Positions 13,894 to 59,110 of a stretch of DNA of 64,000 nt are shown piece after piece. The notes below the pieces were generated by a model. That model did not search any database. It was not told the origin of the DNA and was given only the letters and a program-made list of their open reading frames with translations. Both the position numbers and the translations under genes were made by a program. The DNA comes from Pristiophorus japonicus (taxonomy: Eukaryota): positions 13,516,001-13,580,000 of the forward strand of contig NC_092006.1 in assembly GCF_044704955.1 (NCBI RefSeq), written 5' to 3'. Each line of letters opens with the position of its first letter. The stretch's first letter is position 1.

Positions 13894-13895
13894 CT

Positions 13896-17339: not shown

Positions 17340-17405
17340 TATCAGAATGTCAGCACTCGCTGGCCATACACACTGGCGTGTGCACGCACACGTTCCGCCA
17401 ATCGC

Positions 17406-18569
17406 TCAGAAACACTTGCGATGGACAATCGCCGGACCTTTCTCGTCGTAGTCCTTGCGACACACCCACATGGACCGGAAGGTGTTGAGGCTGGCCGTGA
17501 TGGAGCCCCCAATCCACACCGAGAACTTGCGCTGGGGCGAGGCGTAGACGTTGAGCTTGAAGCGGCTGGGCACCAGCTCGCCCATCTCCTTCTGGATGCG
17601 CTCGGCGAGGCCGGGGAACATGGAGGAGCCGCCCGACAGCACGATGTTGTTGAACAGCTCGGGCCGGTGCTTGGCCTTGCACTTCTTCAGGCTCTTCATG
17701 GCCAGCACGTGGAGGCCGGGGTCAGTCAGCCCCACCGCCTCGGGCTTGAACAGCGACTCGGGGCAGCGGAAGCGCTGGTTGCCGATGGTGATGATGTGTC
17801 CGTCGGGAAGCTTGTAGTCGGTCAGGTAGTCGCTCTCGTTGGCCACCATCTCCTTGTTGAAGTCCTGCGCCACGTAGCAGCAGGTCTCCTTGATGTTGTG
17901 CACGATGTGCATCTCCTCGGGGCTGAAGGTGTTGCCGCAGTCCTCCAGCAGCTTGGCCATGTACTCGCTCAGCCTGCCCCCAGCCAGGTCCAGGCGGTAG
18001 GTGGCATGGGGCAATGTGTAGCCGTTGTAGATGGGCGCCGTGCAGGAGACCCCCAGGCCCGACTCGATGATCAGGCCGTTGATCCTCCCGGTGGAGTACA
18101 GCGACAGCACGCTCTGGTGGGCCACGTACATGGCCGGCACCCCGAAGTTCTCGAACAGCAGCTCGGCCGACTTCTCCCGGTTGGCGGTGGGCGACAGCGG
18201 GCTGTCGGAGAGCAGCACCGCCTGATCCTCAGGGGCCACCCGCAGCTCATGGTAGAAGACGTGGTGCATGAGCATCTCCAGAGCGTCCCAGTCTGTCACG
18301 ATGCCTTTGGTGACCACCTGGGTCTTGGTGATCCACGGGTCACTGGGGATGGCGCTGCCGATGTAGTAGTCGGGCCCCTTGCGCGGGTCGTTGTCCGTTT
18401 GGTTGGGGATGCCCACCAGGGAGTGGACCACCACGCTGGGCTTGTCGTCGCCGGCAAAGCCAGCCTTGGTATAGCCGGTGCCGTTGTCCATCACCACGGC
18501 CGCCGTCTCGGTGAAGTCTTCTGTGCAGGCGGGGGGCCCCTGGGGGGCAGTGGGGGAGGATTTGCTCAT
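17406..18569 (-). CDS. Intronless divergent actin-related protein, copy 1 (387 aa; ACTL7/ACTL9/ACTRT-like testis-ARP type)
   Basis: Actin motifs VVMDNGTGYTKAGFAGDD, GIVTDWD, ELRVAPE, NREK, FENFGVPAMY, QSVLSLY, RLDLAG, IKETCCYVA, YKLPDG, RFRCPESLF, SGGSSMFPG, RKFSVWIGGSI and C-terminal HRKCF. First in-frame ATG at 18569 (the ORF track starts at a non-ATG codon). Confidence 0.93.
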   Translation of the reverse strand: MSKSSPTAPQGPPACTEDFTETAAVVMDNGTGYTKAGFAGDDKPSVVVHSLVGIPNQTDNDPRKGPDYYIGSAIPSDPWITKTQVVTKGIVTDWDALEMLMHHVFYHELRVAPEDQAVLLSDSPLSPTANREKSAELLFENFGVPAMYVAHQSVLSLYSTGRINGLIIESGLGVSCTAPIYNGYTLPHATYRLDLAGGRLSEYMAKLLEDCGNTFSPEEMHIVHNIKETCCYVAQDFNKEMVANESDYLTDYKLPDGHIITIGNQRFRCPESLFKPEAVGLTDPGLHVLAMKSLKKCKAKHRPELFNNIVLSGGSSMFPGLAERIQKEMGELVPSRFKLNVYASPQRKFSVWIGGSITASLNTFRSMWVCRKDYDEKGPAIVHRKCF

Positions 18570-18972
18570 TCTACACAGCGAGGGCACGGACTGAGGGGGT
18601 CCGGGGGTGGGCTTCTTGGGTCTGCTCTGAGCAACACGATCAGCACGCTTTTCTTCCTGTTTGCAGCCTCCCTCTCTCTCCCTCGAGTGTCACCGTCTGT
18701 ATGGGCCCACACCCCCACCTGCCCCTCTACACTGGGCCTGTCGCCGGGGGCAACGGCGCTGATCTCACAATGTCCCCTTGTTGCCTCTGACCTCTGACCT
18801 CCCCCCCCCCCCCACACACACAGGAAGCCAGGTTACAGACAACAGGTGATGTCACTGAGAGAGGGAGGAGGGCCGTCAGTGGGAGGCCCCTCCCTCACCC
18901 TCACTCAGCCCCCCCACGCACCCCACACCCTCTTCCCCCAACCTCCCCCTCCCCAGCCCCCTGCTCACAGCC

Positions 18973-19043
18973 TCAGCCATGATCATATTGAATGGCGGTG
19001 CAGGCTCGAAGGCCCGACTCCTGCACCTATTTTCTCTGTTCCT
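18973..19043 (+). mobile_element. Short CR1 3'-tail fragment on + strand (also ~33261, ~45695, ~59522)
   Basis: tcagccatgatcatattgaatggcggtgcaggctcgaagg..ctcctgcacctattttct is the reverse complement of the CR1 tail at 16960-17037. Confidence 0.75.
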
Positions 19044-19283
19044 ATCCCCCTCCCCATTACGCTGTCTGCCACCCGCAACACCACCCACATCCTCACTGCC
19101 ACCTTTCCCTCGCTCACCCCTCCACCTTCGCTCCAAACCCCTCCCTCACTTTCTGGAGCCCCGTTCCCCGCCTCTGTCCCACTGCTCGCTCCCTGACTTC
19201 AGAGTGAGTCGGTGCGAATCAGTCTGGCCCCCAGCCCCCGGCTCTCCCCAGTGCTGCAAACCAGCTGCTTGATAAGACTCAAT

Positions 19284-21841
19284 GGGCGAGAACCTCCACT
19301 TTTTTTTTGCCATGCTTAACGCCCATTTTACCGCTGAGATGACGTATAATGCCCAGATGTCGCCCATTTTGGCACAATATGGAAACGGGCATTTTTTGGA
19401 GACTTAGCGTCGAACGTTATTTTCCCCGTGTGCTTAACGCCGAGAAAAAATATCTCCCCCCGCCCACTTTTTTGGGGGTGGATTCAGCAGAACGGGCAAC
19501 TTCAACCCAGCATTACTTTCCACACGGAATTAACGGCGAGATTCAATATTAACGCCCGCTGATTGTTTTTTGTCGTAAGGAGCATATTTACCCAAACTAG
19601 CGGCCATGGAGATCGCCCATTGTCAATTTCACCACCTCACATTTCACCCACACTATCGCTCGCTCAAAAAAGCGCCCACAAAGAATGGAGCTAACCGGAA
19701 CAAATCACAGCGTTATGGACGCCATGTTCTCGATCACATGTTGCGACCTTTAAAAGGCCGCTGTGCTTCAGCCTTGGCGGAGTACGGACGTACCCTGCAG
19801 GGCGTTGGAGTTGATCTGAGCATCTCTAAAAACATCTTGACCACACTGTGACCGATTGGAATTGAAGAGGTGTGTTTGTCAGGACATTCCTTGTTTGGGG
19901 CCAATCGGTGGAAAACAGAACTACTGCAATGGGGCCTGTCCTTTCTCGCCCTCTCTTGGTGACCAAATACATGCAGCAGACTCGAGATCACCGAAGGAAC
20001 GCTGCACAGCAGTATGTGCCCAATGTACGAAGTGACAGACTGATGAGGAGGACCAGACGTTCCATCTCCCACAAGTACAAGGAGAAACAGTCTTCCTTCA
20101 ACTTGCCCAACACCACCTGCCTTCGGAGACTGTGCTTCCACAAAGAGGTTATCACTGAGGTATGCCAGCTGATAAGGGCAGATCCGCAGCCTGCCAGCAC
20201 CATCAGTACTGCACTGTCCGTCGAGGTCAAAGTCACCGCGGCACTGTCGTTCTACACCTCGGGTTCTTTTCAGGCCTCAGCTGGCGACATTTGCGGGCTT
20301 TCTCAGCATGCCACACATCGCTGCATTAGACAGGTCACTGAAGCCCTGTACACACACAGGAGGGACTTGATCAGCTTCCGTATGACCAGGGAGGCACAGA
20401 GTGAGAGGGCTCTAGGATCCTCCAGAATTGCAAACTTCCCCAAGGTGCAGGGAGCAATAGACTGTACGCACATCGCGATGCGGGCACCTTTTCAGGATGC
20501 TGAGGTTTTCAGGAACCGCAAGGGATTCCATTCCCTGAATGTCCAACTCGTGTCAACCACCAGCAAGTTATACTGGCAGTGAATGCTAAATCTCTGGGCA
20601 GCATCCATGAAGCGCACATCCTGCGTGAGAGCACTGTATCTGACTTGTTTAACAATCAGCCACAAGGTCAATGCTGGATGCTTGGTGACAAAGGATACGG
20701 CCTCGCCACCTGGCTGATGACACCCCGCTGCGTGACACCCACACCGAAGCCGAGAGGCGATACAACGAGAGCCACAGAGCAACTCGCAATATCCCAGAGA
20801 AAACCATTGGAGTGCTGAAGCAGCGCTTTAGATGCCTGGACCACTCAGGAGGCGAGCTCCAATACCACCCTGAGCAGGTAGCTCAATTCGTGGTGGTGTG
20901 CTCCATGCTGCACAACTTGGCTATCAGGAGGGGACAAGAATTGCCTGATAGTCTGACAGTCCACCTCACCAGAGAGAGGAAGAGGAGGACAAGGAGGCGG
21001 ACGCTGACGTCGGCCCAGACAATCAGGCTGATGCTGAAGCCATGCCCCTGCCCCCCTGTAGACCAATGAAAGGGCCCATGGTGGCATGATAGCTGCAAGA
21101 GCCTTACGTCAGGAGCTCATCAATGATCGCTTTGCCTGAAAGAACGTTGGTGTTATTTCCAAGGCTGACACACTGCTGGGTGTGCAGGTCATACGTCAAT
21201 GGTAGGCATCACCTTGGTGACAGTTAAAGTTTAGGTTGATTGAAGTTAAGTGTAATTATACCCTTTGATGTTAAGGTATCACCAGCGTGTAACGGTGCAG
21301 CTATCTGAGCCAATGTGCTGCAAGGTTTTGTTAAATAAAAAACATTTAAATCAAACATTAGTCTGAAATCATCAGTATTTCTGGACAAACCAACCCTTTG
21401 GGTGACGGCCGAGACGCTGCTTGGACGGATACGTGAGAGGATGGTCCCGAGGTGGGAACGTGCTCTGAGCCAGAAGCAAGATGTTGCCCCTGGCTCTCAT
21501 GTGTGGTTGGCAATGGGAGTGCATCACCTTGGGGGGCAGTGCCACGCTCCGGGACCATTGGGAGCCCTCTGCCACCAGTGTTCCTGGCTACCAGCTCCAG
21601 GGCCTCCTCCATCCCTTCCATGTTAGCTATTATTTGTTGGACAAAAACTCGGTGCCAACAACGTTCTTGGTGCTTAGTAGGCTTCTTGCTGCTGGTGAAT
21701 CTCCGTCGTTCCTCCCACAACAGGCAAATAAGCACACACCACACAGCCACGCACGCTTTCAGTCCCTCTCTGCTCCCCCTCTCTCTGTCTCCTCTTCTGT
21801 GCATATCATGGTGACTCTTGACCTCCAGAATCGTGGGAATC
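19284..21841 (+). mobile_element. PIF/Harbinger DNA transposon copy 1 (left TIR and transposase; right end deleted)
   Basis: Left TIR gggcgagaacctccactttt, subterminal aacgccc repeats, HARBI1-like transposase. Confidence 0.85.
19929..21138 (+). pseudogene. Frameshifted Harbinger (HARBI1-like, DDE_Tnp_4) transposase, copy 1
   Basis: FPKVQGAIDCTHI, NRKGFHSLNVQLV, GSIHEAHIL, MLGDKGY, LKQRFRCLD and CSMLHN are split over 3 ORFs; frameshifts near 20553, 20727 and 20953. Confidence 0.88.
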
Positions 21842-22449
21842 AGAAACATAGAAAATAGGTGCAGGAGTAGGCCATTCGGCCCTTCTAGCCTGCACCGCCA
21901 TTCAATGAGTTCATGGCTGAACATGCAACTTCAGTACCCCATTCCTGCTTTCTCGCCATACCCCTTGATCCCCCTAGTAGTAAGGACTTCATCTAACTCC
22001 TTTTTGAATATATTTAGTGAATTGGCCTCAACAACTTTCTGTGGTGGAGAATTCCACAGGTTCACCACTCTCTGGGTGAAGAAGTTTCTCCTCATCTCGG
22101 TCCTAACTGGCTTACCCCTTATCCTTAGACTGTGACCTCTGGTTCTGGACTTCCCCAACATTGGGAACATTCTTCCTGCATCTAACCTGCCTAACCCCGT
22201 CAGAATTTTAAACGTTTCTATGAGGTCCCCTCTCATTCTTCTGAACTCCAGTGAATACAAGCCCAGTTGATCCAGTCTTTCTTGATAGGTCAGTCCCGCC
22301 ATCCCGGGAATCAGTCTGGTGAACCTTCGCTGCACTCCCTCAATAGCAAGAATGTCCTTCCTCAGGTTAGGAGACCAAAACTGTACACAATACTCCAGGT
22401 CTGGCCTCACCAAGGCCCTGTACAACTGTAGCAACACCTCCCTACCCCT
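21842..22449 (-). mobile_element. CR1 LINE 3' portion inserted in Harbinger copy 1, cut at a deletion junction
   Basis: agaaacatagaaaataggtgc tail; LLQLYRALVRPDLEYC..GYGEKAGMGY. Confidence 0.93.
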
Positions 22450-25400
22450 CCATATCTCTGTAACCTCCTCCAGCCCCTATACCCCTCCCTATCTCTGTAA
22501 CCTCCTCCAGCCCCTCCGCCCCGCCCTAACTCTGTAACCTGCTCCAGCCCTACACCCCTCCTGATCTCTGTAACCTCCTCCAGCCCCTACACTCCTCCCT
22601 ATCTCTGCAACCTCCTCCAGCCACTACACCCTCCCTATCTCTGCAACCACCTCCAGCCCCGACACCCCTCTCTATCTCTGTAACCTCCTCCAGACCCTAC
22701 ACCTCTCCATATCTCTGTAACCTCCTCCAGCCGCTCCATCCCTCCCTATCTCTGTAACCTCCTCCAGCCCCTACACCCCTCACTATCTCTGTAACCTCCT
22801 CTAGACCCTACACCCCTCCCTATCTCTGTCACCTCCCCCAGCCCCTATAACCCTCCCTATCTCTGTAACCTCCTCCAGCCCCAACACCTCTCACTCTCTC
22901 TGTAACCACCTTCAGCCCCTACACCCTCCATATCTCGGTAACCTCCTCCAGCCCCTACACTCCTCCGTATCTCTGTAACACCCTCCAGCCCCTACGCCCC
23001 TCCCTATCTCTGTAACCTCCTCCAGCCCCTACACCCCTCCCTATCTCTGTAACTGCCTCTAGCCCCTAAACCCCTCCCTATCTCTGCAACACCCTCCAGT
23101 CCCAACACCTCACGATCTCCGTACCATCCTCCAGCCCCGACACACCTCCCTATCTCTGTATCCTCCAGCCCCAACACCTCTCACTCTCTCTGTAACCACC
23201 TTCAGCCCCTACACCCTCCATATCTCTGTAACCTCCTCCAGCCCCTACACCCCTCCGTATCTCTGTAACACCCTCCAGCCCCTACACCCCTCCCTATCTC
23301 TGTAACCTCCTCCAGCCCCTACACCCCTCCCTATCTCTGTAATCTCCTCCAGCCCCTACACACCTCCCTGTCTCTGCAACCTCCTCCAGCCCCTACTGCA
23401 CTCCTTATCTCTGTAACCTCCTCCAGCCCTACAACCCTCCCTATCTCTGCAACCTCCTCCAGCTCCAACACCACTCCCTATCTCTGCAACCTCCTCCAGC
23501 CACGACACCCATGCCGATCTCTGTAACTTCCTCCACCAGACCCGACACACCTCCCTATCTCTGTAACCTCCCCTAGCCCCTACACTCCTCCCTATCTCTG
23601 TCACCTCCTCCAGCCCCTACACCCCTCCCTATCTCTGTAACCTCCTCCAGCTTCTACACCCCTCCCTATCTCTGTAACCTCCTCCAGCCCCTACGCCCCT
23701 CCCTACCTCTGTAACCTCCTCCAGCCCCTATATCCGTCCCCGTCTCTGTAACCACCTTCAGCCCATGCACCTCTCCATATCTCTGTAACCTCCTCCAGCC
23801 CCTACACCCCTCCCTATCTCTGTAACCCCCTCCAGCCCCTACACCCCTCCCTATCCCTGTAGCCTCCTCCAGCCCCTACACCCCTCCCTATCTCTGTAAC
23901 TTCCTCCAGCCCCTACACCCCTCCCTGACTCTGTAACCAGCCACAGCACCTAGAACCCCTCCCTATCTCTGTAACCTCCTCCAGCTCTACACCCCTCCCT
24001 ATCTCTGTAACTTCGAGCTCTACATCCATCCCTATCCCTGCAACCACCTCCAGCCCCCACACACCTCCCGATCTCTGTAATCTCCTCCAGCCCCGACACC
24101 CCTCCCTATCTCTGTAATCTCCTCCAGCCCCTACACCCCTCCCTATCTCAGTAACCTCCTCCAGCCTCTACTGCCCTCCCAATCTCTGCAACCTCCTCCA
24201 GCCCCTACACCCCTCCCTATCTCTGTAGCCTCCTCCAGCCCCTACACCCCTCCCTATCTCTGTAACTTCCTCCAGCCCCTACACCCCTCCCTGACTCTAT
24301 AACCAGCCACAGCACCTAGAACCCCTCCCTATCTCTGTAACCTCCTCCAGCCCCCACACACCTCCCGATCTCTGTAATCTCCTCCAGCCCCTGCACCCCT
24401 TCCTATCTCTGTAGCCACCTCCAGCCCCTACACTCCTCCCTATCTCTGTAACCTCCTCCAGCTCCTGCACCCCTTCCTATCTCTGTAGCCTCCTCCAGCC
24501 CCTACACTCCTCCCTATCTCTGTAATGTCTTCCAGCCCCCTCCCTATCACTGTAACTTTCTCCAGCCCCTGCACCCCTCCCGATCACTGTAACGTCCTCC
24601 AGCCCCTACTGCCTTCCCTATCTCTGTAATCTCCTCCAGCATCTCCTGCCCTCCCTATCTCTGTAACTACCTTCAGCCCCTACACCCCTCCATATCTCTG
24701 TAACCTCCTCCCACTTCGACACCCCTCCCTATCTCTGTAACTTCCTCCACCAGATCCTACACCCCTCCCTATCTCTGTAACCTCCTCCAGCCCCTATAAC
24801 CCTCCCTATCTCTGTAACCTCCTCCAGCCCCTTCACCCCTCCATATCTCTGTTACTTCCTCCAGCCTCTACACCCCTCGATCTCTGTAACACCCTCCAGC
24901 TCCTACACCCCTCTATCTCTGTAATCTCCACGGGTCCCTACACCCCTCCCTATCTTGTAACCTCCACGGGCCCCTACACCCCTCCCTATCTCTGTAACCT
25001 CATCCAGCCCCTACACCCCTCCCTATATCTGTAACCTCCTCCAGCCCCTAAACCCCTCCCTATCTCTGTAACCTCCTCCAGTCCCACAACCCCTCCCTAT
25101 CTCTGTAACCTCCTCCAGCCCCCACACACCTCCCGATCTCTGTAATCTCCTCCAGCCCCGACACCCCTCCCTATCTCTGTAATCTCCTCCAGCCCCTACA
25201 CCCCTCCCTATCTCTGTAACCTCCTCCAGCCTCTACTGCCCTCCCGATCTCTGCAACCTCCTCCAGCCCCTACACCCCTCCCTATCTCTGTAACCTCCTC
25301 CAGCTCTACACCCCTCCCTATCTCTGTAACTTCGAGCTCTACACCCATCCCTATCCCTGCAACCACCTCCAGCCCCTACACCCCTCCATATCTCTCTAAC

Positions 25401-28400
25401 CTTCTCCAGCCCCGACACCCCTCCCCAGCTCTGTAACGTCCTCCAGCCCCAACACCTCTGCCTATCTCTGTAACCTCCTCCTGCCCCTATTGCCCTCCCT
25501 ATCTCTGTAATCTCCTCCAGCCCCTACACACCTCCCTGTCTCTGTAACCTCCTCCAGCCCCTACTGCACTCCCTATCTCTGTAACCTCCTCCAGCCCCTA
25601 CACCCCTCCCCATCTCTGTAAACACCTTCAGCCCCAACACCTCTCCATATCTCTGTAACCTCCTCCAGCCGCTACACAACTCCATATCTCTGTAACCTCC
25701 TCCAGCTTTTACACCCCTGCCTATCTCTGTAACTTCCTCCACCAGATCCTACACCCCTCCCTAGCTCTGTAACCTCCTCCAGCCCCTATAACCCTCCCTA
25801 TCTCTGTAACCTCCTCCAGCCCCTACACCCCTCCATATCTCTGTTACTTCCTCCAGCCTCAACACCCCTCGATCTCTGTAACCTCCACGTATCCCTACAC
25901 CTCTCCCTATCTTGTAACCTCCACGGGCCCCGACACCCCTCCCTATCTCTGTAACCTCCTCCAGCCCCTAAACCCCTCCCTATCTCTGTAACCTCCTCCA
26001 GCCCCACAACCCCTCCCTTTCTCTGTAATATCCTCCAGCCCCACAACCCCTCCCTATTTCTGTAATCTCCTCCAGCCTCTACACACCTCCCTATCTCTGT
26101 TACCTCCTCCAGCACCTATATCCCTCCCTAACTCTGTAACCTCCTCCAGCCCTACACCCCTCCTGATCTCTGTAACCTCCTCCAGCCCCTATACCTCTCA
26201 CTATCCCTGCAACCTCCTCCAGCCCCTACAGCCCTCCCTATCACTGTAACCTCCTCCAGCCCCTACACCCCTCCCTTTCTCTGTAACCTCCTCCAGCCCC
26301 TACACCCCTCCCGATCTCTGTAATCTCCTCCAGCCCCGACACCCCTCCCTATCTCTGTAATCTCCTCCAGCCCCTACACCCCTCCCTATCTCTGTAACCT
26401 CCTCCAGCCTCTACTGCCCTCCCGATCTCTGCAACCTCCTCCAGCCCCTACACCCCTCCCTATCTCTGTAGCCTCCTCCAGCTCTACACCCCTCCCTATC
26501 TCTGTAACTTCGAGCTCTACACCCATCCCTATCCCTGCAACCACCTCCAGCCCCTACACCCCTCCATATCTCTGTAACCTTCTCCAGCCCCGACACCCCT
26601 CCACAGCTCTGTAACGTCCTCCAGCCCCAACACCTCTGCCTATCTCTGTAACCTCCTCCTGCCCTTATTGCCCTCCCCATCTCTGTAAACACCTTCAGCC
26701 CCAACACCTCTCCATATCTCTGTAACCTCCTCCAGCCCCTACACAACTCCATATCTCTGTAACTTCGAGCTCTACACCCATCCCTATCCCTGCAACCACC
26801 TCCAGCCCCTACACCCCTCCATATCTCTGTAACCTTCTCCAGCCCCGACACCCCTCCACAGCTCTGTAACGTCCTCCAGCCCCAACACCTCTGCCTATCT
26901 CTGTAACCTCCTCCTGCCCTTATTGCCCTCCCCATCTCTGTAAACACCTTCAGCCCCAACACCTCTCCATATCTCTGTAACCTCCTCCAGCCCCTACACA
27001 ACTCCATATCTCTGTAACCTCCTCCAGCTTTTACACCCCTGCCTATCTCTGTAACTTCCTCCACCAGATCCTACACCCCTCCCTAGCTCTGTAACCTCCT
27101 CCAGCCCCTATAACCCTCCCTATCTCTGTAACCTCCTCCAGCCCCTACACCCCTCCATATCTCTGTTACTTCCTCCAGCCTCAACACCCCTCGATCTCTG
27201 TAACCTCCACGTATCCCTACACCTCTCCCTATCTTGTAACCTCCACGGGCCCCGACACCCCTCCCTATCTCTGTAACCTCCTCCAGCCCCTAAACCCCTC
27301 CATATCTCTGTAACCTCCTCCAGCCCCACAACCCCTCCCTTTCTCTGTAATATCCTCCAGCCCCACAACCCCTCCCTATTTCTGTAATCTCCTCCAGCCT
27401 CTACACACCTCCCTATCTCTGTTACCTCCTCCAGCACCTATATCCCTCCCTAACTCTGTAACCTCCTCCAGCCCTACACCCCTCCTGATCTCTGTAACCT
27501 CCTCCAGCCCCTATACCTCTCACTATCCCTGCAACCTCCTCCAGCCCCTACAGCCCTCCCTATCACTGTAACCTCCTCCAGCCCCTACACCCCTGCCTAT
27601 CTCTGTAGCCTCCTCCAGCCCCTACACCCCTCACTATCTCTGTAATATCCTCCTGCCTCTACACCCCTCCCTATCTCTGTAATCTCCTCCAGCCTCTACA
27701 CACCTCCCTATCTCTGTAACCTCCTCCAGCCCCTGCACCCCTCCCTATCTCTATAGCCTCCTCCAGCCCCTACACCCCTCCCTATCTCTGTAATGTCCTC
27801 CAACCCTCGACACCACTCCCGATCACTGTAACGTCCTCCAGCCCCTACTGCCTTCCCTATCTCTGTAATCTCCTCCAGCACCTCCTGCTCTCCCTATCTC
27901 TGTAACTACCTTCAGCCCCTACACCCCTCCATATCTCTGTAACCTCCTCCCACTTCTACACCCCTCCTGATCTCTGTAACTTTCTCCACCAGCCCCTACA
28001 CCGCTCCCTATCTCTGTTATCTCCTCCAGCCCCTATACCCCTCCCTATCTATGTAACCTCCTCATGGCCCTATGCCCCTCCCTAACTCTGTAACCTCCTC
28101 CAGCCCAACACCCCTCCTGATCTCTGTAACCTCCTCGAGTCCCTATACCTCTCCCTATCCCTGCAACCTCCTCCAGCCCCTACACCCCTCCCTATCTCTG
28201 CAACACCCTCCAGTCCCTACACCTCCCGATCTCCGTAACCTCCTCCAGCCCCTACACCCCTCCATATCTCTGTAACCTCCTCCCACTTCGACACCCCTCC
28301 CTATCTCTGTAACTTCCTCCACCAGATCCTACACCCCTCCCTATCTCTGTAACCTCCTCCAGCCCCTATAACCCTCCCTATCTCTGTAACCTCCTCCAGC

Positions 28401-29150
28401 CCCTTCACCCCTCCATATCTCTGTTACTTCCTCCAGCCTCTACACCCCTCGATCTCTGTAACATCCTCCAGCTCCTACACCCCTCTATCTCTGTAATCTC
28501 CACGGGTCCCTACACCCCTCCCTATCTTGTAACCTCCACGGGCCCCTACACCCCTCCCTATCTCTGTAACCTCATCCAGCCCCTACACCCCTCCCTATAT
28601 CTGTAACCTCCTCCAGCCCCTAAACCCCTCCCTATCTCTGTAACCTCCTCCAGCCCCACAACCCCTCCCTATCTCTGTAACCTCCTCCAACCCCGACACC
28701 CCTCCCTATCTCTGTAACCTCCTCCAGCCCCTACACCGCTCCCTATCTCTGTAACCACCTCCAGCCCCTACATCCCTTCTTATCTCTGTGATCTCCTCCA
28801 GCCCCTATACCCCTCCCTATCTCTGCAACCACCTCCAGCCCCTATGCCCATCCCTAACTCTGTAACCTCCTCCAGCCCGACACCCCTCCTGATCTCTGTA
28901 ACCTCCTTGAGTCCCTATACCTCTCCCTATCCCTGCAACCTCCTCCAGCCCCTACACCCCTCCCTATCTCTGCAACACCCTCCAGTCCCTACACCTCCCG
29001 ATCTCCGTAACCTCCTCCAGCCCCTACACCCCTCCCTATCTCTGTAACTTCCTCCAGCCTCTACACCCCTCCCTGACTCTGTAACCCGCTTCAGCATCTA
29101 CACCCCTCCCTTTCTCTGTAACCTCCTCCAGCCCCACAACCCCTCCCTAT
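22445..29150. repeat. 37-bp minisatellite, array 2
   Basis: Same unit as array 1, with higher-order duplications. Confidence 0.97.
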
Positions 29151-29152
29151 CT

Positions 29153-30063
29153 CCCACACACAGCGATATGATAATGACCCAGATCATCTGTTTTAGTGAT
29201 GTTGGTTGAGGGATAAATATTGGGCCCAGGACACCGGGGAGAACTCCCCCTGCTCTTCTTCCAATAGTAGCCCCGGGATCTTTTACACCCACCCGAGAGG
29301 GCAGACGGGGCCTCGGTTTAACGTCTCATCCGAAAGATGGCCCCTCCGACAGTGCGTCACTCCCTCAGTACCGCCCCTCCGACAGTGCGGCGCTCCCTCA
29401 GTACCGCCCCTCTGACAGGGCGACGCTCCCTCAGTACTGCCCCTCCGACAGTGCGGCGCTCCCTCAGTACTGCCCCTCGGACAGTGCAGCGCTCCCTCAG
29501 TACCGTCCCTCCGACAGTGCGGCGCTCCCTCAGTACTGCCCCTCCGACAGTGCGTCACTCCCTCAGTACCGCCCCTCCGACAGTGCGGCGCTCCCTCAGT
29601 ACCGCCCCTCTGACAGGGCGACGCTCCCTCAGTACTGCCCCTCCGACAGTGCGGCGCTCCCTCAGTACTGCCCCTCGGACAGTGCAGCGCTCCCTCAGTA
29701 CCGTCCCTCCGACAGTGCGGCGCTCCCTCAGTACTGCCCCTCCGACAGTGCAGCGCTCCCTCAGTACCGCCCCTCCGGACAGTGCGGTGCTCCCTCAGTA
29801 GTGCCCCTCCGACAGTGCGGCGCTCCCTCAGTACTGCCCCTCCGACAGTGCGGCGCTCCCTCAGTACTGTCCCTCCGACAGTGCGGTGCTCCCTCAGTAC
29901 CGCCCCTCCGACAGTGCGGTGCTCCCTCAGTACCGCCCCTCCGACAGTGCAGTGCTCCCTCAGTACCGCCCCTCCGACAGTGCGGCGCTCCCTCAGTACG
30001 ACATTGGAGTGTTAGCCTCGAGTGAAATGCTCAAGCTCCTGGAGTGAGACTTGAACCCACAAT
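29153..30063 (-). mobile_element. Deu-type SINE with 33-bp minisatellite, unit 2
   Basis: Paralogous to 13896-15103. Confidence 0.7.
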
Positions 30064-31470: not shown

Positions 31471-31693
31471 TGTCGACCCGCTGTGTCTTTACATCCTCGT
31501 CCCGACTCACAACCCCAGCCAGTTTTGGGTCGTCGGCAAGTGTGGAAGCATGACGGTTTGGTTCCCTGCCGTCCCGTGCAATGAGGGGCCAGCGAGACCA
31601 GGGTGGGAGTTTTTAATTCTGTTTATTTATCAGAATGTCAGCACTCGCTGGCCATACACACTGGCGTGTGCACGCACACGTTCCGCCAATCGC

Positions 31694-41783: not shown

Positions 41784-41784
41784 T

Positions 41785-48563: not shown

Positions 48564-49171
48564 AGAAACATAGAAAATAGGTGCAGGAGTAGGCCATTCG
48601 GCCCTTCTAGCCTGCACCGCCATTCAATGAGTTCATGGCTGAACATGCAACTTCAGTACCCCATTCCTGCTTTCTCGCCATACCCCTTGATCCCCCTAGT
48701 AGTAAGGACTTCATCTAACTCCTTTTTGAATATATTTAGTGAATTGGCCTCAACAACTTTCTGTGGTGGAGAATTCCACAGGTTCACCACTCTCTGGGTG
48801 AAGAAGTTTCTCCTCATCTCGGTCCTAACTGGCTTACCCCTTATCCTTAGACTGTGACCTCTGGTTCTGGACTTCCCCAACATTGGGAACATTCTTCCTG
48901 CATCTAACCTGCCTAACCCCGTCAGAATTTTAAACGTTTCTATGAGGTCCCCTCTCATTCTTCTGAACTCCAGTGAATACAAGCCCAGTTGATCCAGTCT
49001 TTCTTGATAGGTCAGTCCCGCCATCCCGGGAATCAGTCTGGTGAACCTTCGCTGCACTCCCTCAATAGCAAGAATGTCCTTCCTCAGGTTAGGAGACCAA
49101 AACTGTACACAATACTCCAGGTCTGGCCTCACCAAGGCCCTGTACAACTGTAGCAACACCTCCCTACCCCT
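48564..49171 (-). mobile_element. CR1 3' portion, cut at the same junction
   Basis: Paralogous to 21842-22449. Confidence 0.93.
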
Positions 49172-52100
49172 CCATATCTCTGTAACCTCCTCCAGCCCCT
49201 ATACCCCTCCCTATCTCTGTAACCTCCTCCAGCCCCTCCGCCCCGCCCTAACTCTGTAACCTGCTCCAGCCCTACACCCCTCCTGATCTCTGTAACCTCC
49301 TCCAGCCCCTACACTCCTCCCTATCTCTGCAACCTCCTCCAGCCACTACACCCTCCCTATCTCTGCAACCACCTCCAGCCCCGACACCCCTCTCTATCTC
49401 TGTAACCTCCTCCAGACCCTACACCTCTCCATATCTCTGTAACCTCCTCCAGCCGCTCCATCCCTCCCTATCTCTGTAACCTCCTCCAGCCCCTACACCC
49501 CTCACTATCTCTGTAACCTCCTCTAGACCCTACACCCCTCCCTATCTCTGTCACCTCCCCCAGCCCCTATAACCCTCCCTATCTCTGTAACCTCCTCCAG
49601 CCCCAACACCTCTCACTCTCTCTGTAACCACCTTCAGCCCCTACACCCTCCATATCTCGGTAACCTCCTCCAGCCCCTACACTCCTCCGTATCTCTGTAA
49701 CACCCTCCAGCCCCTACGCCCCTCCCTATCTCTGTAACCTCCTACACCCCTCCCTATCTCTGTAACTGCCTCTAGCCCCTAAACCCCTCCCTATCTCTGC
49801 AACACCCTCCAGTCCCAACACCTCACGATCTCCGTACCATCCTCCAGCCCCGACACACCTCCCTATCTCTGTATCCTCCAGCCCCAACACCTCTCACTCT
49901 CTCTGTAACCACCTTCAGCCCCTACACCCTCCATATCTCTGTAACCTCCTCCAGCCCCTACACCCCTCCGTATCTCTGTAACACCCTCCAGCCCCTACAC
50001 CCCTCCCTATCTCTGTAACCTCCTCCAGCCCCTACACCCCTCCCTATCTCTGTAATCTCCTCCAGCCCCTACACACCTCCCTGTCTCTGCAACCTCCTCC
50101 AGCCCCTACTGCACTCCTTATCTCTGTAACCTCCTCCAGCCCTACAACCCTCCCTATCTCTGCAACCTCCTCCAGCCCCAACACCACTCCCTATCTCTGC
50201 AACCTCCTCCAGCCACGACACCCATGCCGATCTCTGTAACTTCCTCCACCAGACCCGACACACCTCCCTATCTCTGTAACCTCCCCTAGCCCCTACACTC
50301 CTCCCTATCTCTGTCACCTCCTCCAGCCCCTACACCCCTCCCTATCTCTGTAACCTCCTCCAGCTTCTACACCCCTCCCTATCTCTGTAACCTCCTCCAG
50401 CCCCTACGCCCCTCCCTAAATCTGTAACCTCCTCCAGCCCCTATATCCGTCCCCGTCTCTGTAACCACCTTCAGCCCATGCACCTCTCCATATCTCTGTA
50501 ACCTCCTCCAGCCCCTACACCCCTCCCTATCTCTGTAACCCCCTCCAGCCCCTACACCCCTCCCTATCCCTGTAGCCTCCTCCAGCCCCTACACCCCTCC
50601 CTATCTCTGTAACTTGCTCCAGCCCCTACACCCCTCCCTGACTCTGTAACCAGCTACAGCACCTAGAACCCCTCCCTATCTCTGTAACCTCCTCCAGCTC
50701 TACACCCCTCCCTATCTCTGTAACTTCGAGCTCTACATCCATCCCTATCCCTGCAACCACCTCCAGCCCCTACACCCCTCCATATCTCTGTAACCTTCTC
50801 CAGCCCCGACACCCCTCCCTATCTCTGTAATCTCCTCCAGCCCCTACACCCCTCCCTATCTCAGTAACCTCCTCCAGCCTCTACTGCCCTCCCAATCTCT
50901 GCAACCTCCTCCAGCCCCTACACCCCTCCCTATCTCTGTAGCCTCCTCCAGCCCCTACACCCCTCCCTATCTCTGTAACTTCCTCCAGCCCCTACACCCC
51001 TCCCTGACTCTATAACCAGCCACAGCACCTAGAACCCCTCCCTATCTCTGTAACCTCCTCCAGCCCCCACACACCTCCCGATCTCTGTAATCTCCTCCAG
51101 CCCCTGCACCCCTTCCTATCTCTGTAGCCTCCTCCAGCCCCTACACTCCTCCCTATCTCTGTAACCTCCTCCAGCCCCTGCACCCCTTCCTATCTCTGTA
51201 GCCTCCTCCAGCCCCTACACTCCTCCCTATCTCTGTAATGTCTTCCAGCCCCCTCCCTATCACTGTAACTTTCTCCAGCCCCTGCACCCCTCCCGATCAC
51301 TGTACCGTCCTCCAGCCCCTACTGCCTTCCCTATCTCTGTAATCTCCTCCAGCATCTCCTGCCCTCCCTATCTCTGTAACTACCTTCAGCCCCTACACCC
51401 CTCCATATCTCTGTAACCTCCTCCCACTTCGACACCCCTCCCTATCTCTGTAACTTCCTCCACCAGATCCTACACCCCTCCCTATCTCTGTAACCTCCTC
51501 CAGCCCCTATAACCCTCCCTATCTCTGTAACCTCCTCCAGCCCCTTCACCCCTCCATATCTCTGTTACTTCCTCCAGCCTCTACACCCCTCGATCTCTGT
51601 AACACCCTCCAGCTCCTACACCCCTCTATCTCTGTAATCTCCACGGGTCCCTACACCCCTCCCTATCTTGTAACCTCCACGGGCCCCTACACCCCTCCCT
51701 ATCTCTGTAACCTCATCCAGCCCCTACACCCCTCCCTATATCTGTAACCTCCTCCAGCCCCTAAACCCCTCCCTATCTCTGTAACCTCCTCCAGTCCCAC
51801 AACCCCTCCCTATCTCTGTAACCTCCTCCAGCCCCCACACACCTCCCGATCTCTGTAATCTCCTCCAGCCCCGACACCCCTCCCTATCTCTGTAATCTCC
51901 TCCAGCCCCTACACCCCTCCCTATCTCTGTAACCTCCTCCAGCCTCTACTGCCCTCCCGATCTCTGCAACCTCCTCCAGCCCCTACACCCCTCCCTATCT
52001 CTGTAACCTCCTCCAGCTCTACACCCCTCCCTATCTCTGTAACTTCGAGCTCTACACCCATCCCTATCCCTGCAACCACCTCCAGCCCCTACACCCCTCC

Positions 52101-55100
52101 ATATCTCTGTAACCTTCTCCAGCCCCGACACCCCTCCCCAGCTCTGTAACGTCCTCCAGCCCCAACACCTCTGCCTATCTCTGTAACCTCCTCCTGCCCC
52201 TATTGCCCTCCCTATCTCTGTAATCTCCTCCAGCCCCTACACACCTCCCTGTCTCTGTAACCTCCTCCAGCCCCTACTGCACTCCCTATCTCTGTAACCT
52301 CCTCCAGCCCCTACACCCCTCCCCATCTCTGTAAACACCTTCAGCCCCAACACCTCTCCATATCTCTGTAACCTCCTCCAGCCCCTACACAACTCCATAT
52401 CTCTGTAACCTCCTCCAGCTTTTACACCCCTGCCTATCTCTGTAACTTCCTCCACCAGATCCTACACCCCTCCCTAGCTCTGTAACCTCCTCCAGCCCCT
52501 ATAACCCTCCCTATCTCTGTAACCTCCTCCAGCCCCTACACCCCTCCATATCTCTGTTACTTCCTCCAGCCTCAACACCCCTCGATCTCTGTAACCTCCA
52601 CGTATCCCTACACCTCTCCCTATCTTGTAACCTCCACGGGCCCCGACACCCCTCCCTATCTCTGTAACCTCCTCCAGCCCCTAAACCCCTCCCTATCTCT
52701 GTAACCTCCTCCAGCCCCACAACCCCTCCCTTTCTCTGTAATATCCTCCAGCCCCACAACCCCTCCCTATTTCTGTAATCTCCTCCAGCCTCTACACACC
52801 TCCCTATCTCTGTTACCTCCTCCAGCACCTATATCCCTCCCTAACTCTGTAACCTCCTCCAGCCCTACACCCCTCCTGATCTCTGTAACCTCCTCCAGCC
52901 CCTATACCTCTCACTATCCCTGCAACCTCCTCCAGCCCCTACACCCCTCCCTATCACTGTAACCTCCTCCAGCCCCTACACCCCTCCCTTTCTCTGTAAC
53001 CTCCTCCAGCCCCTACACCCCTCCCGATCTCCGTAATCTCCTCCAGCCCCGACACCCCTCCCTATCTCTGTAATCTCCTCCAGCCCCTACACCCCTCCCT
53101 ATCTCTGTAACCTCCTCCAGCCTCTACTGCCCTCCCGATCTCTGCAACCTCCTCCAGCCCCTACACCCCTCCCTATCTCTGTAGCCTCCTCCAGCTCTAC
53201 ACCCCTCCCTATCTCTGTAACTTCGAGCTCTACACCCATCCCTATCCCTGCAACCACCTCCAGCCCCTACACCCCTCCATATCTCTGTAACCTTCTCCAG
53301 CCCCGACACCCCTCCACAGCTCTGTAACGTCCTCCAGCCCCAACACCTCTGCCTATCTCTGTAACCTCCTCCTGCCCCTATTGCCCTCCCCATCTCTGTA
53401 AACACCTTCAGCCCCAACACCTCTCCATATCTCTGTAACCTCCTCCAGCCCCTACACAACTCCATATCTCTGTAACCTCCTCCAGCTTTTACACCCCTGC
53501 CTATCTCTGTAACTTCCTCCACCAGATCCTACACCCCTCCCTAGCTCTGTAACCTCCTCCAGCCCCTATAACCCTCCCTATCTCTGTAACCTCCTCCAGC
53601 CCCTACACCCCTCCATATCTCTGTTACTTCCTCCAGCCTCAACACCCCTCGATCTCTGTAACCTCCACGTATCCCTACACCTCTCCCTATCTTGTAACCT
53701 CCACTGGCCCCGACACCCCTCCCTATCTCTGTAACCTCCTCCAGCCCCTAAACCCCTCCCTATCTCTGTAACCTCCTCCAGCCCCACAACCCCTCCCTTT
53801 CTCTGTAATATCCTCCAGCCCCACAACCCCTCCCTATTTCTGTAATCTCCTCCAGCCTCTACACACCTCCCTATCTCTGTTACCTCCTCCAGCACCTATA
53901 TCCCTCCCTAACTCTGTAACCTCCTCCAGCCCTACACCCCTCCTGATCTCTGTAACCTCCTCCAGCCCCTATACCTCTCACTATCCCTGCAACCTCCTCC
54001 AGCCCCTACAGCCCTCCCTATCACTGTAACCTCCTCCAGCCCCTACACCCCTCCCTATCTCTGTAGCCTCCTCCAGCCCCTACACCCCTCACTATCTCTG
54101 TAATATCCTCCTGCCTCTACACCCCTCCCTATCTCTGTAATCTCCTCCAGCCTCTACACACCTCCCTATCTCTGTAACCTCCTCCAGCCCCTGCACCCCT
54201 CCCTATCTCTATAGCCTCCTCCAGCCCCTACACCCCTCCCTATCTCTGTAATGTCCTCCAACCCTCGACACCACTCCCGATCACTGTAACGTCCTCCAGC
54301 CCCTACTGCCTTCCCTATCTCTGTAATCTCCTCCAGCACCTCCTGCTCTCCCTATCTCTGTAACTACCTTCAGCCCCTACACCCCTCCATATCTCTGTAA
54401 CCTCCTCCCACTTCTACACCCCTCCTGATCTCTGTAACTTTCTCCACCAGCCCCTACACCGCTCCCTATCTCTGTTATCTCCTCCAGCCCCTATACCCCT
54501 CCCTATCTATGTAACCTCCTCATGGCCCTATGCCCCTCCCTAACTCTGTAACCTCCTCCAGCCCAACACCCCTCCTGATCTCTGTAACCTCCTCGAGTCC
54601 CTATACCTCTCCCTATCCCTGCAACCTCCTCCAGCCCCTACACCCCTCCCTATCTCTGCAACACCCTCCAGTCCCTACACCTCCCGATCTCCGTAACCTC
54701 CTCCAGCCCCTACACCCCTCCATATCTCTGTAACCTCCTCCCACTTCGACACCCCTCCCTATCTCTGTAACTTCCTCCACCAGATCCTACACCCCTCCCT
54801 ATCTCTGTAACCTCCTCCAGCCCCTATAACCCTCCCTATCTCTGTAACCTCCTCCAGCCCCTTCACCCCTCCATATCTCTGTTACTTCCTCCAGCCTCTA
54901 CACCCCTCGATCTCTGTAACATCCTCCAGCTCCTACACCCCTCTATCTCTGTAATCTCCACGGGTCCCTACACCCCTCCCTATCTTGTAACCTCCACGGG
55001 CCCCTACACCCCTCCCTATCTCTGTAACCTCATCCAGCCCCTACACCCCTCCCTATATCTGTAACCTCCTCCAGCCCCTAAACCCCTCCCTATCTCTGTA

Positions 55101-55610
55101 ACCTCCTCCAGCCCCACAACCCCTCCCTATCTCTGTAACCTCCTCCAACCCCGACACCCCTCCCTATCTCTGTAACCTCCTCCAGCCCCTACACCGCTCC
55201 CTATCTCTGTAACCACCTCCAGCCCCTACATCCCTTCTTATCTCTGTGATCTCCTCCAGCCCCTATACCCCTCCCTATCTCTGCAACCACCTCCAGCCCC
55301 TATGCCCATCCCTAACTCTGTAACCTCCTCCAGCCCGACACCCCTCCTGATCTCTGTAACCTCCTTGAGTCCCTATACCTCTCCCTATCCCTGCAACCTC
55401 CTCCAGCCCCTACACCCCTCCCTATCTCTGCAACACCCTCCAGTCCGTACACCTCCCGATCTCCGTAACCTCCTCCAGCCCCTACACCCCTCCCTATCTC
55501 TGTAACTTCCTCCAGCCTCTACACCCCTCCCTGACTCTGTAACCCGCTTCAGCATCTACACCCCTCCCTTTCTCTGTAACCTCCTCCAGCCCCACAACCC
55601 CTCCCTATCT
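49167..55610. repeat. 37-bp minisatellite, array 4
   Basis: Near-identical variant order to array 2. Confidence 0.97.
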
Positions 55611-55611
55611 C

Positions 55612-56323: not shown

Positions 56324-56681
56324 TGGGAGGCAGTTGGTTGAGGAAGGAGTTTTGCCCGGAACACCAGCAACACCCTGTTCTCCAAGGAATAGGATCTTTA
56401 ACATCCACCGCATCAGGAGAGGGGCATGGAGCAGTGAGAGGGCTCAGTGAAACATCAAGTCCCCCTCCCCAGGGCTCAGTCCCACACTGGGCCCCTCTCC
56501 CCCTCCCCAGGGCTCAGTCCCACACCGGGCCCCCCTCCCCCTCCCCGGGGCTCAGTCCCACACCGGGCCCCCCTCCCCCTCCCCGGGGCTCAGTCCCACA
56601 CCGAGTGAGACCACTGGGGCAATGCGAGCCATGATTCGAAGGGAAGGGGCCCCTGGTGACATTTGGACCAATCCTCACTTT

Positions 56682-57723
56682 CGTAGAAATAAAAAATCGG
56701 AGCAGGAGTCGGCCATTCAATATGATCCCGGCTGATCCTCTATCCTCACACCATATTCCCACTTTCTCTCCAGCCCCCTTGATGCCTTTTGTGTCTCGAA
56801 ATCTATCGATCTCCCTCTTGAATATATTCAGTGACTTGGCCTCCACAGCCTTCTGTGGTCGAGAATTCCACAGGTTCACCACCCTCTGAGTGAGAACATT
56901 TCTCCTCATCTCAGTCCTAAATTTCCTAGCCCGTATCCTGAGACTGTGACCCCTTGTTCTAGACTTCCCAGCCCCGGGGAAACATCCTCCCCGCATCCAG
57001 TCTGTCCAACCCCGTCACAATTTTATACATTTCAATGAGATCCCCTCTCATTCTTCTAAACTCCAGTGAATACAGGCCCAGTCGACCCAATCTCTCCTCA
57101 TACCACAGTCCTGCCATCCCAGGAATCAGTCTGGTGAACCTTCACTGCACTCCCTCTATGGCAAGTATATCCTTCCTTAGGTAAGGAGACCAAAACTGCA
57201 CACAATACTCCTGGTGCGGTCTCACCAATGCCCTGTATAACTGGAGTAAGGCATCTCCTTGCTCCTGTACACAAATCCTCTTGCAATGTAGGCCAACGTA
57301 CCCCATTTGCCCCTAACTGCTTGCTGCACCATGTTTGTTTTCAATGTCTGGTGTACAAGGACACCCAGGTCCCTCTGTACATCCACACTTCCCAAGCCGT
57401 CACCATTTAAACAATACTTTGTCCTCATGTTTTTCCCACCAAAGTAGATAACTTCACATTTATCCACGTTATACTACATCTGCCATGTGTTTGCCCATTC
57501 ACATAGAAACATAGAGAATAGGTGCAGGAGTAGGCCATTCGGCCCTTCGAGCCTGCACCACCATTCAATAAGATCATGGCTGATCATTCACCTCAGTCCC
57601 CCATTCCTGCTTTCTCTCCCTTGATCCCTTTAGCCGTAAGGACCACATCCAACTCCCTTTTGAATCTGTCTAACGAACTGGCCTCAACAACTTTCTGTGG
57701 CAGAGAATTCGACAGGTTCACTC
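56682..57723 (-). mobile_element. CR1 fragments, unit 4
   Basis: Paralogous to 16112-17182. Confidence 0.9.
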
Positions 57724-57946
57724 TGTCGACCCGCTGTGTCTTTACATCCTCGTCCCGACTCACAACCCCAGCCAGTTTTGGGTCGTCGGCAAGTGTGGAA
57801 GCATGACGGTTTGGTTCCCTGCCGTCCCGTGCAATGAGGGGCCAGCGAGACCAGGGTGGGAGTTTTTAATTCTGTTTATTTATCAGAATGTCAGCACTCG
57901 CTGGCCATACACACTGGCGTGTGCACGCACACGTTCCGCCAATCGC

Positions 57947-59110
57947 TCAGAAACACTTGCGATGGACAATCGCCGGACCCTTCTCGTCGTAGTCCTTGCG
58001 ACACACCCACATGGACTGGAAGGTGTTGAGGCTGGCCGTGATGGAGCCCCCAATCCACACCGAGAACTTGCGCTGGGGCGAGGCGTAGACGTTGAGCTTG
58101 AAGCGGCTGGGCACCAGCTCGCCCATCTCCTTCTGGATGCGCTCGGCGAGGCCGGGGAACATGGAGGAGCCGCCCGACAGCACGATGTTGTTGAACAGCT
58201 CGGGCCGGTGCTTGGCCTTGCACTTCTTCAGGCTCTTCATGGCCAGCACGTGGAGGCCGGGGTCAGTCAGCCCCACCGCCTCGGGCTTGAACAGAGACTC
58301 GGGGCAGCGGAAGCGCTGGTTGCCGATGGTGATGATGTGTCCGTCGGGAAGCTTGTAGTCGGTCAGGTAGTCGCTCTTGTTGGCCACCATCTCCTTGTTG
58401 AAGTCCTGCGCCACGTAGCAGCAGGTCTCCTTGATGTTGTGCACGATGTGCATCTCCTCGGGGCTGAAGGTGTTGCCGCACTCCTCCAGCAGCTTGGCCA
58501 TGTACTCGCTCAGCCTGCCCCCAGCCAGGTCCAGGCGGTAGGTGGCATGGGGCAATGTGTAGCCGTTGTAGATGGGCACCGTGTAGGAGACCCCCAGGCC
58601 CGACTCGATGATCAGGCCGTTGATCCTCCCGGTGGAGTACAGCGACAGCACGCTCTGGTGGGCCACGTACATGGCCGGCACCCCAAAGTTCTCGAACAGC
58701 AGCTCGGCCGACTTCTCCCGGTTGGCGGTGGGCGACAGCGGGCTGTCGGAGAGCAGCACCGCCTGATCCTCAGGGGCCACCCGCAGCTCATGGCAGAAGA
58801 CGTGGTGCATGAGCATCTCCAGAGCGTCCCAGTCTGTCACGATGCCTTTGGTGACCACCTGGGTCTTGGTGATCCACGGGTCACTGGGGATGGCGCTGCC
58901 GATGTAGTAGTCGGGCCCCTTGCGCGGGTCGTTGCCCGTCTGGTTGGGGATGCCCACCAGGGAGTGGACCACCACGCTGGGCTTGTCGTCGCCGGCAAAG
59001 CCAGCCTTGGTATAGCCGGTGCCGTTGTCCATCACCACGGCCGCCGTCTTGGTGAAGTCTTCTGTGCAGGCGGGGGGCCCCTGGGGGGCAGTGGGGGAGG
59101 ATTTGCTCAT
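57947..59110 (-). CDS. Intronless actin-related protein, copy 4 (387 aa)
   Basis: Intact ORF; 8 aa differences from copy 1, of which 7 are shared with copy 3. Confidence 0.93.
   Translation of the reverse strand: MSKSSPTAPQGPPACTEDFTKTAAVVMDNGTGYTKAGFAGDDKPSVVVHSLVGIPNQTGNDPRKGPDYYIGSAIPSDPWITKTQVVTKGIVTDWDALEMLMHHVFCHELRVAPEDQAVLLSDSPLSPTANREKSAELLFENFGVPAMYVAHQSVLSLYSTGRINGLIIESGLGVSYTVPIYNGYTLPHATYRLDLAGGRLSEYMAKLLEECGNTFSPEEMHIVHNIKETCCYVAQDFNKEMVANKSDYLTDYKLPDGHIITIGNQRFRCPESLFKPEAVGLTDPGLHVLAMKSLKKCKAKHRPELFNNIVLSGGSSMFPGLAERIQKEMGELVPSRFKLNVYASPQRKFSVWIGGSITASLNTFQSMWVCRKDYDEKGPAIVHRKCF

Follow-up and report, generated by a model that had tools for sequence, protein, structure and literature searches.

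What defines ampliconic gene families in mammals is sequence identity, expression in the testis and linkage to a sex chromosome (PMC13616518). ACTL11 is among the most phosphorylated proteins of boar sperm (PMC8322956), and human ACTL11P adjoins MST1R on chromosome 3 (10.1101/2025.06.26.661731). Tandem duplication is reported to be commoner in the larger shark and ray genomes (10.1101/2025.06.08.657570). Here we describe, in relation to these systems, a gene array in a window of 64,000 nucleotides from the sawshark Pristiophorus japonicus (NC_092006.1, forward strand; G000:C32:13516001-13580000; genome size 5.9 Gb), which holds four copies of a divergent actin-like gene, with a fifth beyond its edge. 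We give a probability of about 60% to the following reading: the five-copy array is real; its gene is old and intronless and likely belongs to the ACTL11 lineage; the array likely grew by unequal crossing-over; and the protein changes at about the neutral rate, the extra copies likely being passengers.

The locus resembles mammalian ampliconic testis families in being multicopy at more than 97% identity, in combining tandem and inverted copies, and in being a recombination mosaic. It differs from them in that the array is probably autosomal, counts only 5-7 copies, and gives no support for positive selection once rate heterogeneity is controlled. The likeness to these families that the initial annotation had drawn thus stands for identity (at least 97%, with differences of 0.2-1.7% in the coding sequence (CDS) among seven copies on contig C32) and probably falls for sex-chromosome location. 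Like the tandem clusters of other elasmobranchs, the array is tandem and lies in a large genome; in the passages used from the survey of such clusters, no actin-like cluster is named (10.1101/2025.06.08.657570). A tandem array is in itself an ordinary event for a large, repeat-rich shark genome. The mammalian actin-related protein (ARP) ARPM1 has an omega (nonsynonymous to synonymous rate ratio, dN/dS) of 0.23 (10.1101/2025.03.27.645694), in contrast to about 1 for the sawshark gene.

The gene copies of the window, with their presumed signals, are as follows (window coordinates).

17406..18569, minus strand: likely ACTL11-clade actin-like gene, copy 1; open reading frame (ORF) of 387 amino acids, single coding exon, G+C content at third codon positions (GC3) 0.93
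31694..32857, minus strand: actin-like gene, copy 2; 387-amino-acid ORF, 3 nt from copy 1
44121..45284, minus strand: actin-like gene, copy 3; 387-amino-acid ORF, 2 nt from copy 4, carries G32S
57947..59110, minus strand: actin-like gene, copy 4; 387-amino-acid ORF, 2 nt from copy 3
17334..17339, 31622..31627, 44049..44054 and 57875..57880, minus strand: AATAAA of copies 1-4, 67 nt past the stop codon
18847..18854, minus strand: TGACATCA, motif of copy 1 resembling a cyclic AMP response element (CRE), about 285 nt upstream of the ATG

The four head-to-tail, open, single-exon ORFs, each with its own AATAAA, are thus as first annotated, and the suspicion that the array continues past the window was correct: an intact copy 5 lies at G000:C32:13597727-13598887, 23.8 kb past copy 4. 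Beyond copy 5 no additional copy was found as far as 13.68 Mb on C32, and the sequence from 13,520,886 to 13,680,000 contains no N. Start-to-start distances from copy 1 to copy 4 are 14,288, 12,427 and 13,826 bp, and the window copies differ pairwise at 2-13 of 1164 nt. The term 'intronless' applies to the CDS, which is a continuous ORF. The CRE-like motif, which we take to be linked to CREM, is present in 9/9 gene copies examined. The same genomic total of ten copies came out of one protein search and of two flank searches: seven lie on C32, and C8, C14 and C19 have a single copy each. The two C32 copies outside the array form an inverted pair 350-430 kb away, one member being interrupted by a gap; among the others, those on C19 and C14 are 94% and 91% identical, and that on C8 is frameshifted. 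With the C32 copies more than 97% identical, a recent amplification in a cartilaginous fish, as had been proposed, is confirmed. The two extra C32 copies are carried by an inverted duplication of about 99% identity at G000:C32:13.09-13.19 Mb (L045-L049), with gypsy-type long terminal repeat fragments upstream; assembly gaps lie in and near this duplication, and it may be partly artefactual.

We then placed the gene among the actins. Its product matches Pfam Actin (PF00022, E 8e-113, residues 21-387), is about 52% identical to conventional actin, and has orthologs at 61-87% identity in sharks, rays and a chimaera (14 other chondrichthyan genera). A maximum-likelihood tree of 35 rows, from which mammalian ACTL7, ACTL8, ACTL10 and ACTRT1-3 were left out, puts it within the ACTL7/9/10/11 group with support of 100/100 and, within this group, in a clade with mammalian ACTL11 and the 'actin-3-like' genes of sturgeon, coelacanth, amphibians and reptiles (92/93, just below the 95 bootstrap mark). 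The branching of the bony-vertebrate 'actin-3-like' genes matches the species tree. In approximately unbiased (AU) tests, a grouping with ACTL7 was rejected (p-AU 0.0005), as was one with ACTL9 (0.001). On these comparisons the gene belongs to the ACTL7/9/10/11 group as an old lineage of jawed vertebrates, and its closest mammalian relative is likely the sperm protein ACTL11. Thus, of the affinities first suggested, membership of the testis-type ARP group is retained, the best position being with ACTL11, and those with ACTL7 and ACTL9 are lost.

Three observations count against the ACTL11 assignment. A grouping with ACTL10 is absent from the best tree and is not rejected by the AU test (p-AU 0.076). 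The ACTL11 branch is long and moves to the base of the clade in a FastTree analysis of 180 rows. Lastly, the neighbourhood of the array, with an alpha-arrestin gene that we take to be TXNIP-like on C32, is unlike that of ACTL11, to which MON1A presumably belongs; MON1-family matches lie on C12 and C19.

The sawshark protein and ACTL11 have in common, besides their likely shared clade, a Tyr at the position of actin H161 (except in copies 1, 2 and 5), the loss of D157 and a divergent D-loop. They differ in that ACTL11 (about 1200 amino acids in placentals) has an N-terminal extension of 800 residues that is absent from the sawshark protein and likewise from the reptile and amphibian members of the clade. 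Actin-domain identity to ACTL11 is 43-45%, as against 54-56% to the reptile, amphibian and coelacanth relatives, and the sawshark has ten copies in another gene neighbourhood. ACTL7A/ACTL7B, ACTL9 and ACTL10 are similarly intronless divergent actins of the same superclade, whereas the ACTRT types fall outside it.

Residues were compared up to actin position 214, in a numbering that we assume for the phosphate loops. The equivalents of D11, G13, G15, K18 and Q137 are kept in copy 1, the D-loop is replaced, the H73 position is occupied by K and the H161 position by C or Y (Cys in window copies 1 and 2 and in copy 5). Since the phosphate-loop residues are kept and the D-loop, H73 and H161 are lost, nucleotide binding is likely and the formation of canonical filaments doubtful. 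In copy 3, G32S (codon 32, equivalent to window position 18476) alters the phosphate-loop glycine that corresponds to actin G15 and may impair nucleotide binding in that copy. The protein would be a nucleotide-binding, probably non-canonical actin of male germ cells; the label 'testis-type' is drawn from homology alone. An AlphaFold model (mean predicted local distance difference test score 43.7) was too poor and was not used.

Besides this gene, the sawshark genome contains distinct ACTL7-, ACTL9- and ACTRT-type genes as single members of these groups, on C1, C18, C6, C2 and C4. The presence of the full ARP set in a shark implies that this repertoire predates mammals: ACTL7, ACTL9, ACTL11-like and ACTRT types would already have been separate before sharks and mammals split, and the little-studied ACTL11 would acquire relatives outside mammals. 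Among the ARP genes with a long single exon are an ACTL7A/7B-type pair on C1 (L011, L022) and a pair on C18 (L012, L020), of which L012 groups with human ACTL9 (support 98/95); others are L023, L024, L026 and L028, which include ACTRT-type genes. An older actin-like paralog lies 1.1 Mb from the array (L029:1146-2031, G000:C32 at about 12.406 Mb); it has a frameshift near its 5' end and in-frame deletions, and resembles an intact Heterodontus protein of the same clade (P0452). Two clusters on C1 (480.81-481.03 Mb and 542.39-542.59 Mb; L013-L019, L021, L025) comprise at least nine conventional-type actin genes, whose final 332 codons lie in one exon and of which L025 is strongly divergent. Among the records of other species, five from Callorhinchus represent one gene; in Latimeria there are two near-identical proteins, and in S. 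torazame two RefSeq accessions for one protein (protein records only).

The growth of the array can be read from the differences among its units. Across 6.2 kb of the four aligned units there are 113 variable sites, which fall mainly into three successive blocks with dominant patterns 0111, then 0011, then 0001. In other words, copy 1 differs downstream of the gene, copies 1 and 2 differ from 3 and 4 over the gene, and copy 4 differs upstream. The sites comprise 75 transitions, 32 of them at CpG, and 38 transversions; private sites number 14 in copy 2 and 16 in copy 3. The switches between the blocks map to two intervals (unit-1 coordinates).

17268..17439, unstranded: inferred crossover interval 1; switch from 1 versus 2-4 to 1+2 versus 3+4
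19479..19536, unstranded: inferred crossover interval 2; switch from 1+2 versus 3+4 to 1-3 versus 4

A two-copy ancestor would have mispaired twice, with one unequal crossover at the 3' end of the gene and one about 0.9 kb upstream of the ATG; two such events yield exactly the flank-gene-flank combinations of copies 2 and 3. The tandem copies thus likely arose by unequal crossing-over, with exchanges between the LINE (long interspersed element) and minisatellite blocks as the proposed means of enlargement. The derived upstream flank occurs in three distinct versions, which is more than two alleles of one locus could supply. So read, the array would preserve in clear form two unequal crossovers and the collapse of constraint that followed duplication.

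The dispersed copies point to a second process. Each unit carries, in the orientation of the gene and downstream of it, the 3' end of a CR1-type LINE and, on the other side, a Harbinger-type transposon; both names are presumed from weak Pfam matches and from characteristic motifs.

16954..17180, minus strand: CR1-type LINE 3' end, 227 bp, with 8-nt tail repeat; downstream of the gene, same orientation
31242..31468, 43675..43895 and 57501..57721, minus strand: CR1-type LINE 3' end of units 2-4
19284..21841, plus strand: Harbinger-type DNA transposon of unit 1, left end; DDE_Tnp_4 match with E 0.00076, below cut-off

The inserts on C8, C19 and C14 measure 2.5, 11.8 and 15.4 kb. On the 3' side of the gene 3/3 end exactly at the CR1 tail, and their opposite ends vary. 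Of the variants of the 227-bp tail fragment that are specific to the source, those on C8 and C19 carry 3/3, one of them only 16 nt from the junction, so that recombination with a CR1 already resident there does not account for these copies. Tail units were added at C8 and C14 (two of the three tails lengthened), and at C8 the 2.5-kb insert interrupts cleanly the body of an old CR1 that runs in the opposite direction. At C19 a 6-nt match on both sides could represent a target-site duplication. The source CDS contains no intron whose loss could mark the copies as processed. A pair of LINEs on C32 and C8 is 99.7% identical over 3.4 kb, so the family was recently active. Capture of the gene by the Harbinger element was also considered and rejected, the dispersed copies not being bounded by Harbinger ends. 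The element at C19 (about 86,398,900-86,399,090; L052) is a short, internally deleted form with both ends; C32, C14 and C8 have the long form.

These junctions suggest that CR1 machinery moved the off-chromosome copies, and the three scattered copies likely hitch-hiked on the retrotransposon tail. Before the array grew, long read-through RNAs ending in the CR1 3' tail would have formed, CR1 would have reverse-transcribed them in trans, priming at the tail, and the products, promoter region included, would have been inserted on C8, C14 and C19. Such an RNA would start well upstream of the presumed promoter and so does not show that a normal mRNA is made. The scheme is like that of LINE/SINE pairs (SINE, short interspersed element), such as the stringent pair HE1-HER1 of sharks (PMC3747384), and like L1 transduction, in that the enzyme of a LINE copies a non-autonomous RNA that has the 3' tail of this LINE at its end, and it is like UnaL2 in that tail repeats lengthen by slippage. 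It differs in its passenger: in place of a SINE, an entire protein-coding gene is carried together with the promoter region (2.5-15 kb). The junctions merit attention because recognition by CR1 of its own RNA is said to limit host retrocopies (review, PMC5470649); should they be scars of retrotransposition, CR1 would be able to mobilise entire host genes situated upstream of its tails, although according to reviews it seldom copies host genes. A bolder version, which we advance tentatively and at clearly less than even odds, is that a sperm-type actin gene, having gained a CR1 3' tail close behind its poly(A) signal, became 'stringent' CR1 cargo, seeding three other chromosomes with complete and mostly intact copies that carry the promoter while amplifying in tandem and giving rise to an expressed, fast-changing germline family. 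Were this true, CR1 tails would offer shark genomes a general means of transducing host genes.

Several features of the inserts are unfavourable to retrotransposition. The 5-nt sequence on both sides of the C8 copy, its possible target-site duplication, overlaps microhomology at both ends; at the C14 junctions neither a target duplication nor the diagnostic sites were seen; and the inserts on C14 and C19 are large when compared with the products of LINEs. The copies on C8, C14 and C19 could instead be DNA-level duplications, by templated insertion or recombination, in which the CR1 tail repeat chanced to serve as microhomology. Such tails occur in very large numbers in the genome, the inserts include the promoter region together with as much as 15 kb of minisatellite, no target duplication is seen at C14, and the region has large DNA duplications, including the inverted 99% pair at 13.10 and 13.18 Mb of C32. 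We regard this origin as unlikely, if with a sizeable minority chance, since all three junctions lie at the tail on the same side of the gene with variable other ends, and since the C8 target is the body of an oppositely oriented CR1 with no resident tail, where the tail nevertheless gained a unit.

The initial annotation had proposed a dosage amplification. Divergence in the CDS equals that of the flanks (copy 1 against the C14 copy: 4.9% in the CDS, 3.1% and 5.7% in the flanks). With mutation modelled at equal rates, 8 copies gave an omega of 0.86 (p 0.49 for a difference from 1), and with a GC-to-AT bias left free, 9 copies gave 1.16 (p 0.50). Amino-acid alleles fall on shark-invariant sites in 38/53 cases, versus 67% expected, which is about the neutral share, and novel residues are distributed over invariant and variable sites at 43:20, versus 52:93 in ten other chondrichthyans (p 2e-5). 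The protein changes at about the neutral rate. Consequently, the extra copies are likely tolerated passengers and not a selected increase in dosage; with dN/dS close to 1 in the best-fitting models, the dosage proposal is not sustained. The simplest reading is that amino-acid constraint is strongly relaxed, with truncation perhaps selected against.

That annotation had also set the open actin gene against a frameshifted neighbouring transposase. The Harbinger-type element is present in all four units, its right end being kept solely in unit 4 (at about 63624), and the transposase is indeed broken in 4/4. The breaks are at the same two places in every unit and were thus inherited from before the duplication, so the contrast is uninformative on selection since then. 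Moreover, that all four frames are open accords with chance: the 15 substitutions among these four copies predict about 1.1 disruptions, and the probability of none is 0.32.

Two results run counter to relaxed constraint. The F3x4 models gave an omega of 0.20-0.33 and rejected 1; these values were set aside because the models fit worse (log-likelihood -2012 and -2004, versus -1992) and assume equilibrium at a GC3 of 0.93. Secondly, of nine complete copies eight have an open frame, against some 5-8 disruptions to be expected under full neutrality (P 0.002-0.03), an expectation based on the indel rate of the repeat-rich flanks; this excess of open frames suggests some selection against truncation.

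The same excess would be expected if, as in the model of the initial annotation, selection favoured more, or more diversified, sperm-head actin and an omega near 1 were a mixture of purifying and positive selection. The gene belongs to the testis-type ARP group, the CRE-like motif is found in 9/9 copies and AATAAA in 8/8 checked, and changes at shark-invariant sites number 21-23 in the C32 lineage, versus 13-14 for C19 and C14. The site model M2a is preferred to M1a on nine copies (p 0.002). This last signal was rejected as evidence of positive selection: a neutral model that allows two classes of mutation rate takes up the signal and fits better than M2a (-2071.2 versus -2073.2), and the signal weakens to p 0.095 on three non-mosaic copies. 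In a branch model the C32 stem has an omega of 1.47, which is not different from 1 (p 0.49). Conserved residues are altered, among them W101, E265 and the G15 equivalent, and C32 has no Hox9 match. We therefore consider selection for the extra copies improbable and prefer to see them as passengers.

The weakest alternative, an assembly artefact in which one- or two-copy haplotypes were stitched in tandem, might be entertained for a repeat- and GC-rich region with 5-14 kb satellites between the genes, where read depth is uncalibrated (about 19 over the CDS in run X1) and the longest X1 DNA contig over the CDS is identical to no assembled copy, and it is very improbable given five versions with private substitutions biased to transitions and CpG, three versions of one derived flank, a satellite length particular to each unit and the absence of any gap. 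Thus, false duplication is unlikely because of the staircase of shared variants and the private substitutions in each copy.

The sex linkage of the array was assessed indirectly. The shark X carries HoxC (PMC10620051), and 0/4 Hox9 matches in the genome lie on C32. X-linkage is thus unlikely and the array probably autosomal. The most divergent of the four Hox9 matches (G000:C37:40293568-40294164) lies on a contig that is out of size order; it is a candidate HoxC9, and C37 a candidate X chromosome.

In a literature search that leaves most subscription journals uncovered, neither titles nor abstracts dealt with an actin-like array in sharks or with gene transduction by CR1 tails. Within that search, the statement that no such array was known holds for papers; the copies themselves are already automatically annotated in RefSeq-derived databases, where UniRef cluster mates of the window proteins carry the name Pristiophorus japonicus 'actin-1-like'. 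The name 'acrosomal process isoform-like', probably assigned automatically from the best hit, was not taken as evidence. Some RefSeq-derived isoforms lack 34 codons (codons 58-92), matching an in-frame 102-nt GC-AG intron within the exon, and other shorter isoforms in sawshark, Stegostoma and Heterodontus have unexplained junctions near the same codons. These junctions could derive from protein alignment and were not accepted as proof of transcription. Contigs of X5, a run of unknown kind from a single study, cover parts of 17427-18694 and not the unique flanks; no conclusion was drawn from them.

On the plus strand, a unit consists of 37-bp, 33-bp and 38-bp minisatellites, an old CR1-type fragment, the 227-bp CR1 3' end, the gene, the Harbinger-type transposon and a young CR1 fragment. 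The remaining features of the window are these.

9467..13896, unstranded: 37-bp minisatellite, 120 units
22444..29153, 36731..41785 and 49166..55611, unstranded: 37-bp minisatellite, 182, 137 and 175 units
14083..16034, unstranded: 33-bp and 38-bp minisatellites
16115..16953, minus strand: older CR1-type LINE fragment, downstream of the gene
21842..22443, minus strand: young CR1-type LINE within the Harbinger element; also at 36129..36730 and 48564..49165
62391..63664, minus strand: longer form of the young LINE and Harbinger right end, unit 4; RVT_1 match
290..3232, minus strand: alpha-arrestin gene, multi-exon, presumably TXNIP-like; not in the amplified unit

The 37-bp minisatellite reaches 367 units beyond the window, and units 2-4 have in common a contraction of the 38-bp array, to 3.8 repeats. 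In units 1-3 a common deletion cuts the young CR1 and fuses it to the 37-bp satellite. The longer form at 62391..63664 is homologous to 7492-8677 (97.7%), and these two blocks bound the four-copy stretch. A Pfam scan of 146 of the 604 flank frames returned only retrotransposon domains and one sub-threshold DUF match. Between the array and the alpha-arrestin gene there is an assembly gap of 200 N at 4686-4885, flanked by GA-rich repeats, which makes scaffolding the basis for placing the two side by side. The alpha-arrestin gene lies 14 kb from copy 1, looks intact, has a CpG-rich promoter with CCAAT boxes, and has one close match in the genome.

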